This document shows, piece by piece, positions 5,824 through 42,592 of a stretch of DNA of 64,000 nucleotides. Source of the stretch: a virus (lineage: Duplodnaviria > Caudoviricetes); IMG/VR virus record IMGVR_UViG_3300042892_002922, positions 160,001-224,000 of that record. One strand, given 5' to 3'. The position numbers and the translations under genes were made by a program. The stretch's first letter is position 1. Each line of letters opens with the position of its first letter. The notes under the pieces were generated by a model. The model saw only the letters and a list, made by a program, of their open reading frames with translations. It was not told the origin of the DNA and searched no databases.

Positions 5824-5854
5824 TGATAAAAATAAAAAAAGATATTTATAACAT

Positions 5855-7957: not shown

Positions 7958-7994
7958 CCATTTACATTTTTAATATCTATAGTTATTCTTGTTT

Positions 7995-8591
7995 ATGGAA
8001 ACAAAATTCAAAAACAAATCTAAAATTTTAGGATTAGATATCTCAACCAAAACTATTGGTTGGGCACTATTCGATTTAGCCGGTAAGAAGTTGTTAGAGT
8101 TAACACATTTCTCACCAAAGGTTAAACCCCTACCAGAAGACAAATTAGAGGAATTAATGAAAAAAGCGGATGCTTTCAAGAAACAACTTGAGGGTTATCG
8201 TGATATGGGTATTGTTAAAGTTATCATTGAAGAACCATTATTAAATTCTAATAATATCTACACAGTAGGTACATTATTAAGATATAACACAATGATTTGC
8301 AAGATAGTATACGATATTTTGGGTATTGTTCCGACATTTATTTCCACATATAATGCAAGAAAATTTGCGTTCCCAGATTTAGTTGGTCCAAATGATAAAG
8401 GTAGAAATGTTCTATTTGGCGGTTATCCTAAAGATATTGATAAGAAACATGTGGTTTGGGAACACGTAAACGCTGTTTGCCCAGAAGTTACTTGGTTATA
8501 TGGTAAAACCGGTTCATTAAGAAAAGAAAACTATGATATGAGTGATGCTGCAACAGCGGTAATCGGCTATATTAACATGTTAAAAGAATAA
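7995..8591 (+). CDS. ruvC: RuvC-like Holliday junction resolvase / RNase H-fold nuclease
   Basis: ILGLDISTKTIGW, IIEEP and DMSDA acidic catalytic motifs; ATG at 7995 preferred over TTG at 7989. Confidence 0.75.
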   Translation: METKFKNKSKILGLDISTKTIGWALFDLAGKKLLELTHFSPKVKPLPEDKLEELMKKADAFKKQLEGYRDMGIVKVIIEEPLLNSNNIYTVGTLLRYNTMICKIVYDILGIVPTFISTYNARKFAFPDLVGPNDKGRNVLFGGYPKDIDKKHVVWEHVNAVCPEVTWLYGKTGSLRKENYDMSDAATAVIGYINMLKE

Positions 8592-8603
8592 GGCAACTAG
8601 TAT

Positions 8604-8634
8604 TTTGTTATTAATTATTAATAGCGTATATTAG
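8604..8634 (+). promoter_or_regulatory. Bacteroidota-type housekeeping promoter (TTTG-N19-TATATTAG)
   Basis: Resembles the -33 TTTG / -7 TAnnTTTG consensus with 19-nt spacer. Confidence 0.5.
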
Positions 8635-8639
8635 TATAC

Positions 8640-8716
8640 AATACAGCAAATCGGGTGCACAGAAATGTACATCTGGTTGGTGTTCCCCTGGGGTGGTGTC
8701 CAGGGGATTTTTTTTT
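8640..8716 (+). ncRNA. Candidate small structured RNA (GAAA-tetraloop hairpin + terminator hairpin)
   Basis: GC-rich island between promoter and T9 terminator; hairpin 8652-8675 with two G-U pairs and GAAA loop; hairpin 8684-8707. Confidence 0.45.
8684..8716 (+). terminator. Intrinsic terminator
   Basis: TCCCCTGG/CCAGGGGA 8-bp stem followed by T9. Confidence 0.8.
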
Positions 8717-8743
8717 CTCACATATTTTACATATATTAGGCAT

Positions 8744-9682
8744 ATGCCGGAAACCGAAATCGACTATTCAGCTATTGTTGACCTTTTAGAGGACATATTG
8801 GGAGAACCACATATGCACAATGACTATAGGTGTCAAATATCTTTTGACTGCCCTGTCTGCTCGTATGAGTTAAAGGGGTTAGATGAAGGGGATGGTAAGG
8901 GTAATTTAGAAATTAACTATCGTTTTGGGGTTTATAAGTGCTGGGCGTGTAGTGAAACACACGATACTCACGGTGGGCTATATAAGTTAATCAAAAAATA
9001 TGGTCGACCTAAACATACAAAACGTTATGAGTTATTGAGACCAGATGATATTGGTGAATTAAGAAAAGTAACTAAGGTTGCGAGGTTACCAAACGAGTAC
9101 ATTCCATTAAAAGACGCTAGTATGGGTTTAAAATTAACTCATTACTATAAACAGGCGATGAATTATTTACGTAGTAGAAATATTACTGACGAAATGATTG
9201 AAAAATATCGAATAGGATTTGCATACACTGGTTTATACGCTAGTAGAATCATAATCCCATCATATGGGCATGATTTAATGTTAAACTATTTCATTGCCAG
9301 ATCATATGCCCCAAACACTAAATTAAAATATAAAAATCCAGATGTCAGAAAAGAGGATTTGATTTTTAATGAACATTTGCTTGATTGGACTAAACCAATC
9401 AACATTGTTGAGGGCGCATTTGACAGTATATTCGTACCAAACTCAATACCATTACTTGGTAAATTTGTTAGTGAGTTTGTTTTCAATAAGATATATGATA
9501 ACGCAACCGGGATTACGATATTATTAGATGGAGATGCGTGGGAAGATGCACAAAGAGTATATCATAAATTAAATGGCGGTAGATTATTTGGTAAAGTTTG
9601 GATAGTAAAACTAGATATTGATAAAGATATCGCTGACTTACAAGGAAAATTAGAAAATTATAAACCCTTTCAATTAAAGTAA
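8744..9682 (+). CDS. DNA primase (Zn finger + TOPRIM)
   Basis: CPVC...CWAC zinc finger; IVEGAFD and LLDGDA TOPRIM motifs; ATG at 8744 preferred over GTG at 8693, which lies in the terminator loop. Confidence 0.8.
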   Translation: MPETEIDYSAIVDLLEDILGEPHMHNDYRCQISFDCPVCSYELKGLDEGDGKGNLEINYRFGVYKCWACSETHDTHGGLYKLIKKYGRPKHTKRYELLRPDDIGELRKVTKVARLPNEYIPLKDASMGLKLTHYYKQAMNYLRSRNITDEMIEKYRIGFAYTGLYASRIIIPSYGHDLMLNYFIARSYAPNTKLKYKNPDVRKEDLIFNEHLLDWTKPINIVEGAFDSIFVPNSIPLLGKFVSEFVFNKIYDNATGITILLDGDAWEDAQRVYHKLNGGRLFGKVWIVKLDIDKDIADLQGKLENYKPFQLK

Positions 9683-11834: not shown

Positions 11835-11891
11835 AATCGGGCAACGGTTATTTTTTATTATGTGGTAAATAAAGTATATTAGTAAAAACAT

Positions 11892-12209
11892 ATGAATATG
11901 ACATTATTATTTTTCTGGGCTTTTATGGCTTACGGTATGACAACAATAATTGTTTACGGATCAATATTCGATAAACCTAGGGAGTTCATTAAGAGACACT
12001 CAAAATTTTTTGGAGATCTTGTTGGTTGTATGCTTTGTACATCAACTTGGTGCGGATTTTTCTTATCATTAGTTTTGGGCGGGCTGTCAACTAAAATATT
12101 TGACATTAATTGGATTCCAGCAATATTTTTTGATGGTATGTATACGGCCGGCATCGTCTGGGCTATAAACGGAATAGTTGAATTTTTTGAAGAAAGTAGA
12201 ATAAAATAA
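11892..12209 (+). CDS. Small membrane protein (DUF1360-like)
   Basis: Three hydrophobic segments, CMLCTSTWCG motif. Confidence 0.6.
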   Translation: MNMTLLFFWAFMAYGMTTIIVYGSIFDKPREFIKRHSKFFGDLVGCMLCTSTWCGFFLSLVLGGLSTKIFDINWIPAIFFDGMYTAGIVWAINGIVEFFEESRIK

Positions 12210-32696: not shown

Positions 32697-32737
32697 TTAA
32701 AAATAAAGTATTTATATAAAACAACTAAAATTAAAAA

Positions 32738-37175: not shown

Positions 37176-37258
37176 AATTAATTATTTAATACCCATTTAA
37201 TTCGTTTAAAATTAGTATTTATTAGTAACACATTAGTGGAAAGTGAAACTAATAGATT

Positions 37259-42565: not shown

Positions 42566-42592
42566 ATAACCAATTTTATTCTATTTATAGTT

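Follow-up and report, generated by a model that had tools for sequence, protein, structure and literature searches.

In the window, a 64,000-nt stretch of an uncultured giant phage genome, a gap of 152 nt (8592–8743) separates the genes for a RuvC-like Holliday-junction resolvase and a DnaG/gp61-type primase. The primase opens a replication block, in which exonuclease, SbcD and SbcC homologues follow, and it is syntenic in all relatives that carry the element described here. The resolvase, 78–90% identical across all RNA-bearing relatives and always directly upstream of the element, would be the final gene of the upstream block, with its transcripts stopping at the terminator within the gap. 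The exact primase protein of the window's phage is listed in 90 blocks of a public assembly collection. Strain variants of this phage diverge by 1–3% in the flanking genes, with zero SNPs in 8592–8743.

The gap holds a predicted small RNA gene with a simple layout: a short 5' tail, a variable scaffold hairpin, a single-stranded linker, a GC-rich terminator hairpin and U9 (Table 1). The boxes, the GAAA hairpin, the 8-nt linker, the terminator with its 8-nt G/U loop and the U9 tail all lie where the first-pass annotation had put them; the second TATATTAG is also present, one position away from the 8733 given there. The RNA folds with a minimum free energy of −32.3 kcal/mol (z = −3.4), and 1 of 200 shuffles folds as well. 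In most members RNAfold shows weak pairing between the 5' tail and the first linker bases; most terminator loops are of 8 nt, and RNAfold closes these to 6 nt. Hairpin 2 has the make-up of an intrinsic terminator, with a stem of 7–9 pairs, 6 of them G-C, running into U9, and this is kept in all members, whose terminator stems comprise 7–10 GC-rich pairs. It is the top terminator-like site in the first 20 kb of the window. Nearly all members have a tail of exactly nine T, and in most cases 27 nt lie between its end and the primase ATG.

Table 1. Genes and predicted features around the resolvase–primase gap (window positions)
Feature	Positions	Strand	Remarks
RuvC-like Holliday-junction resolvase gene	7989–8591	+	Matches PHROG 159 and 827
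Conserved upstream box GGCAAC	8592–8597	+	Block GGCAAC-TAATATTT(G/C), same distance in relatives
−33-like TTTG	8604–8607	+	Read in the window; 19 nt before TATATTAG
P1, −7-type box TATATTAG of the RNA	8627–8634	+	TATATTT in relatives
Predicted small RNA, ~77–79 nt	8638–8716	+	5' end placed from the promoter box; 3' end inside U9
Hairpin 1	8652–8675	+	10 bp, two G-U pairs, one C/A mismatch; GAAA loop 8662–8665
Linker GUUGGUGU	8676–8683	+	Core GUUGGU invariant in the core clade
Hairpin 2, predicted intrinsic terminator	8684–8707	+	Stem 8685–8691 with 8700–8706; 8-nt loop GGUGGUGU 8692–8699; A8707
U9 terminator tail	8708–8716	+	Directly after A8707
P2, second TATATTAG	8732–8739	+	Ends 4 nt before the primase ATG (8744); same heptamer as P1, conserved in relatives
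DnaG-type (T4 gp61-like) primase gene	8744–9682	+	PHROG 47, E 1.4e-34; Pfam DNAG_N

Promoters for sigma-A of Bacteroidota follow the consensus TTTG at −33 and TAnnTTTG at −7, spaced 19–21 nt apart. The window has TTTG-N19-TATATTAG upstream of the RNA, a candidate promoter of this type. Relatives show TTT(G/C/T), ~N20 and TATATTT(A), usually lacking the final G of the −7 box. In an alignment of relatives picked by primase similarity alone, TATATT at P1 is invariant, and P1 and the upstream box keep a fixed distance. The 8-mer TATATTAG is not enriched across the whole window (6 found, 5.2 expected), so the promoter call rests on conservation in relatives and not on counts. No open reading frame begins after P1, which marks the box as a signal for transcription and not for translation.

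Promoter-like boxes 4–9 nt before an ATG are a general pattern in this phage. A second GGCAAC-N29-TATATTAG arrangement occurs at 11840–11882, 9 nt before the ATG of a 105-aa gene at 11892, and suggests a small promoter class that this gene may have in common with the RNA. TATTTAT boxes lie a few bases 5' of structural-gene start codons (2840–2861, 5838–5854, 32700–32737, 37200–37258 and 42575–42592), so close that mRNAs from these late-type promoters would have very short leaders or none. The A-T9-N-T8 block 5' of the primase is kept in relatives that lack the RNA (L019–L021) and so belongs to the primase promoter region; within the RNA family, the T9 appears to be the terminator tail and, at the same time, the −33 region for the primase. 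Just outside the family, the nearest relatives (L019:2890-2975 and L021:2893-2956) have a terminator hairpin, along with a promoter box, upstream of the T9/T8 block. The hairpin loop of L021 reads GGGUGGUGG, and L019 has a similar string buried in a stem.

The element recurs at one genomic address. A search with a two-motif pattern returned 39 loci, 38 of them real, with 22 distinct RNA sequences, and the resolvase–RNA–primase layout is found in ~40 IMG/VR phage contigs. Gene order is identical across all pattern-found loci: a 700-aa protein, resolvase, RNA, primase, exonuclease and SbcD. All primase relatives in IMG/VR at 63–75% identity have the element at a constant distance from the ATG; among more distant primase relatives in IMG/VR it was not found. 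The carriers form a clade of uncultured giant phages from many lake metagenomes, with genomes of ~300–335 kb as implied by CheckV completeness values. Two loci (L138:1600-1800 and L141:1600-1800) have an extra open reading frame of ~70 codons between the resolvase and the RNA promoter, with promoter and RNA intact. The RNA unit travels with its promoter and not with the resolvase.

We built a covariance model, R1, which matches the window at 8646–8716 (57.4 bits, E 1.6e-10). The match is unique in the 64 kb, where the runner-up scores 17 bits. At 57 bits against 71–91 bits for the others, the window copy is the most divergent member. On five contigs of 91–251 kb, R1 finds one strong copy each, plus a marginal 23-bit match on one of them; there is a single copy of the RNA per genome.

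Sequence changes among members preserve the fold. In the model-based alignment of the 22 sequences, 95.4% of cells are standard pairs, against 38–56% when partners are slid by 1–3 columns, and 11 of 16 pairs have changed on both sides. The observed covariation score was reached by none of 500 shuffles. A structure-blind MAFFT alignment likewise contains double compensatory changes in 10 of 15 predicted pairs. Hairpin 1 has double compensatory changes in four of its seven modelled pairs, with 98.7% of cells paired. Compensatory changes affect seven of nine pairs in the terminator stem, which flips from C-rich/G-rich to G-rich/C-rich between clades around an invariant GUGGUGU loop. Frequent G-U pairs assign the structure to RNA of the + strand, which excludes the minus strand and speaks against a hairpin in DNA. 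The tests set beforehand as deciding, conservation and covariation in relatives, both proved strongly positive; the compensatory changes and G-U pairs also bear out the earlier claim of selection at the RNA level. Stems maintained by compensating mutations, together with two invariant G/U-rich motifs, identify a real RNA family.

The pattern search forces the motifs, and we therefore checked their invariance in sets chosen by primase or resolvase similarity only. Four features are retained throughout the core clade when members are picked this way: the TATATT box, a string around GGACGGG in the 5' part, GUUGGU in the linker and GUGGUGU in the loop. The first-pass annotation had described two UGGUGU motifs: the linker and the terminator loop do indeed present related G/U motifs, but the invariant cores are GUUGGU in the former and GUGGUGU in the latter. 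A wider clade, including a variant on 13 contigs, retains two hairpins and a loop with GGUG(U) and is missing the linker motif. The base after the terminator loop is variable, being U or A in many members (L140, L145, L160, L163 and L178–L183). So is the apex of hairpin 1, which reads GAAA, UAAAA or UUUA; the GAAA loop, once taken for a selected feature, is not conserved in relatives, and the apex tolerates a 60-nt insertion. That insertion, of ~60 nt in L183:1650-1777, leaves linker, loop and terminator unaffected. In L176:1638-1772 only two bases separate the linker motif GGUUGGU from its exact complement downstream; a 65-nt insertion that adds a hairpin comes later, and the terminator loop of this member is CACGGUGUAA.

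The family appears to be new, being absent from the databases that we checked. Permissive cmscan searches of Rfam 15 with the window copy and the best-scoring relative gave best scores of 20–27 bits against thresholds of 39–100, so that no family reached its threshold, and all of these sub-threshold matches ride on the terminator. Across 185,579 bacterial and archaeal genomes the motif pattern matched twice, neither time truly: one match scores 20 bits against the model, and the other gives no match to it. Cultured phages yielded no DNA match to the window, and the best primase matches outside IMG/VR, from a 484-kb uncultured phage and Flavobacterium phages, are only 32–33% identical. A literature search on these motifs and on small RNAs of Flavobacterium and Bacteroidetes phages found nothing relevant.

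What kind of element is this? It is very probably a real, selected and structured RNA. Conserved promoter boxes, a terminator and indels that are not multiples of three would fit a small RNA gene, and the earlier proposal of a discrete, structured RNA that has promoter-like boxes to itself and ends at a strong intrinsic terminator has held up at the level of sequence. We consider it likely, with less assurance, that the element is an independent transcript. The structure, the selection and the gene-like organisation behind the small RNA reading are well supported, and the targets are proposals.

Our best reading is a stand-alone phage small RNA, transcribed by the host polymerase, that shows two G/U motifs to a CA-rich RNA or to a protein. 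Host RNA polymerase would start at the Bacteroidota-type promoter (TTTG, ~19–20 nt, TATATT) right after the resolvase stop codon. The exposed G/U motifs in linker and loop would be the working parts and the stems their scaffold. They would most likely pair at two sites, through a kissing-loop and a linker contact, with CA-rich RNA (ACCAAC / ACACCAC), and the partner might be a host RNA or the phage's own Thr/Pro-repeat fibre messages. The terminator would also end the late resolvase transcript and insulate the primase and replication block, which would restart from its own promoter box; separation of the late block from the replication block is likewise part of our best reading. A trans-acting small RNA that pairs with CA-rich RNA is the likeliest mechanism and, taken as a whole, a tentative explanation to which we give somewhat under an even chance. 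Base pairing as the mode of action is in itself possible but doubtful, and seeds of 6–7 nt are short.

Searches of the window and a 251-kb relative for pairing partners found no conserved target. The 7-mers ACACCAC and ACCAACC are neither enriched nor placed at start sites in the window or in the 251-kb relative. A motif scan with duplex energies over the same two sequences yielded only spurious small open reading frames with none in common, and hence no conserved start-site target among the phage mRNAs. The hexamers ACACCA and ACCAAC, complements of the motif cores, are among the top 1–2% of over-represented hexamers and cluster in Thr/Pro-repeat fibre genes, which lie a few kb upstream of the RNA on the same strand. 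A bipartite target, ACACCAC followed by ACCAACC, was rejected, with matches only in Thr/Pro-repeat genes. Also set aside, as a general mechanism, was the idea that the terminator loop pairs with the opening codons of the primase: ACACCAC follows the ATG only in a sub-clade (L086, L090, L091 and L100) and is absent from the window and most members. Thr/Pro-repeat genes occur in seven of seven RNA-bearing genomes and also in one (G009) without the RNA beside its primase. That counterexample, along with phylogenetic confounding, makes their co-occurrence with the RNA uninformative. The Thr-Pro codon pairing with fibre mRNAs that the first-pass annotation had raised is thus weakened, with a complementarity of only 6 nt and repeat genes in a relative that lacks the RNA at this site.

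Related genomes offer further observations on codon and repeat content. The 251-kb contig (G002) has a cluster of 21 tRNA genes on the minus strand (L125:5593-10489; 45.6–50.5 kb), among them tRNA-Thr(UGU) and tRNA-Pro(UGG), which match the ACA and CCA codons of the repeat-rich fibre genes; ARAGORN counts 22 tRNA genes in a relative's genome, tRNA-Thr(UGU) and tRNA-Pro(UGG) among them. Over the whole of that contig (L123–L135), GGTGGT, GTGGTG, TGGTGG and CTGGTG are the most over-represented coding-strand hexamers. These look like the RNA loop in its sense form and like the core of E. coli Chi, and probably reflect Gly-rich repeats with GGT codons. A 288-kb related genome contains 281 copies of ACACCAAC on one strand, most within a few kb (G007:C1:108000-114200), a packing that seems to indicate an enormous Thr/Pro-repeat gene.

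One more elaborate idea starts from the motifs reading like Pro and Thr anticodons: the RNA might couple the phage's Thr-Pro translation demand to gene control. It would coat the G-free, CA-rich tracts of the giant fibre genes upstream, with their strings of ACA-CCA codons, to which the motifs are complementary. Coating could shield them from Rho loading or nucleases, amounting to small-RNA-mediated anti-termination inside coding repeats, or else the RNA could mimic the anticodon arm of tRNA-Thr and titrate a host factor. We regard this idea as a long shot; if true, it would be a new type of function for a phage small RNA, in a phylum whose small RNA mechanisms are barely known.

The main rivals to a trans-acting RNA are a protein-controlled terminator and a protein decoy. 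As a cis-acting leader or attenuator of the primase operon, the element would stop transcripts from P1 unless an RNA-binding protein of phage or host, perhaps a dimer, gripped the GU(U/G)GGU motifs, blocked the hairpin and allowed read-through. Strict placement directly 5' of the primase and the fixed distance from U9 to ATG would fit such a role, the related motifs lie on either side of the terminator stem's 5' half, and a linear box followed by a conserved-loop hairpin with a covarying stem looks like a nut-type site. However, truncated folds revealed neither a conserved antiterminator nor any fold that hides the terminator's 5' strand, a result in favour of constitutive termination and with it of a discrete RNA. 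A conserved promoter-like box identical to P1 precedes the primase itself, and persistence of the A-T9-N-T8 block without the RNA means that the primase promoter can explain the spacing. The wider clade, moreover, dispenses with the linker motif while retaining the loop. On balance a leader is unlikely. The decoy, or sponge, would have loop and linker mimic part of a tRNA, or offer two sites that titrate a dimeric RNA-binding protein during infection. Its motif does occur twice, in a loop and in a single strand 15–19 nt apart, a geometry that recalls CsrA-type sponges. The U-GGU-G loop is shaped like the anticodon loop for a Thr codon, and the linker is identical to a common tRNA D-loop string; in several variants (L149, L151 and L160) the loop is of 7 nt, its second base being U and the next four GGU and a purine; and the phage is rich in Thr codons, with tRNA-Thr and tRNA-Pro encoded by a relative. 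Yet ARAGORN finds no tRNA-like gene at the locus, most loops are of 8 nt and closed to 6 nt by RNAfold, and the likeness to tRNA is short. We judge a decoy to be distinctly unlikely.

Two plainer accounts fare worse. The element might be a mere terminator, or the 3' UTR of the resolvase or late transcript serving stability or insulation, with unused boxes and a functionless RNA. A strong terminator directly after the last gene of a long same-strand block is what that account predicts, but a bare terminator needs neither an invariant loop and linker nor a conserved second hairpin, and the phage's other terminators have unrelated loops. It would also leave the invariant TATATT and upstream box, kept across 60–75% protein divergence, without a use, and it sits poorly with the two loci (L138, L141) where an extra open reading frame follows the resolvase and promoter and RNA remain intact. 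We find it improbable. Most improbable of all is a DNA-level element, whether an origin, a primase-loading hairpin (a G4-type single-strand initiation site) or an R-loop primer. The neighbouring primase, the AT-rich T9/T8 block just downstream and the window's loop and closing base, GTGTC, a T7 primase recognition site, speak for it. Against it, whether as a G4-type hairpin or a T7-type primase site, the GTC is not conserved, its C being replaced by U or A after the loop in many members, and in DNA the G-U pairs on which the stems rely would turn into G-T if this strand formed the hairpin and into mismatches if the other did. Cumulative GC skew in the 251-kb relative tracks gene direction, with no turn at the locus. 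The origin or primer role proposed earlier finds no footing in these results.

Several further candidates were rejected. A T-box leader gave no match even at E up to 10 and offers no alternative antiterminator, having only a UGGU string in common, and ARAGORN finds no tRNA gene in the window. The window linker equals the start of the thrombin aptamer, but for a two-tetrad G-quadruplex the first GG is A-G in many members. AUG-UAA and AUG-UAG strings in hairpin 1, candidates for a small open reading frame, vary among A, G, U and C with compensating partners, and are therefore base pairs and not start codons. An RNA anti-CRISPR that mimics a type I-E CRISPR repeat was dismissed from the stems alone, whose sequence is not conserved and whose strand composition swaps between clades.

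The stand-alone small RNA that we favour is of moderate interest for its clean anatomy, its giant Bacteroidota-phage setting and its testability. To our knowledge, almost nothing is known of the regulatory RNAs of Bacteroidota phages or of giant phages. The likely hosts, Bacteroidota, are not known to have Hfq or to use Shine-Dalgarno pairing; without Hfq and classical ribosome-binding sites, the rules of small RNA action there are open. A compact family with strong covariation, a scaffold distinct from its invariant display motifs and a fixed genomic address is a clean entry point. R1 permits annotation, and the two motifs are clear targets for mutagenesis. Should CA-rich coding repeats or a host factor prove to be bound by the motifs, the regulatory logic would be new; if the terminator is instead protein-controlled, it would be a first antitermination switch for this phage group.

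The RNA shares parts of its design with several known systems. Like the CsrB and RsmZ sponges, it places a short motif in a loop and a linker with a spacing that fits a dimeric binder; unlike them, it has only two sites, and its motif is GU(U/G)GGU where theirs is GGA. We know of no CsrA homologue in Bacteroidota. With lambda nut (boxA and boxB) and HK022 put it shares a linear box and then a conserved-loop hairpin with a covarying stem, after an early promoter, but the lake-phage hairpin is itself a strong predicted terminator with U9 and is followed by a promoter-like box. OxyS with its target fhlA and Staphylococcus RNAIII, small RNAs that base-pair at two sites through seed motifs in hairpin loops, resemble it in having short invariant motifs in loop and single strand, a covarying scaffold and a terminator as last hairpin; their motifs are C-rich, whereas those of the lake-phage RNA are G/U-rich. 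Lambda OOP, a 77-nt phage small RNA with a constitutive promoter beside replication genes, was first suspected to be a replication primer. OOP is antisense to cII and acts through overlap, whereas all neighbours of the lake-phage RNA are encoded on its own strand, no gene overlaps it, and it has no sequence in common with OOP. The two are nevertheless alike in size, in a promoter of their own (predicted here), in ending at an intrinsic terminator and in their replication-gene neighbourhood.
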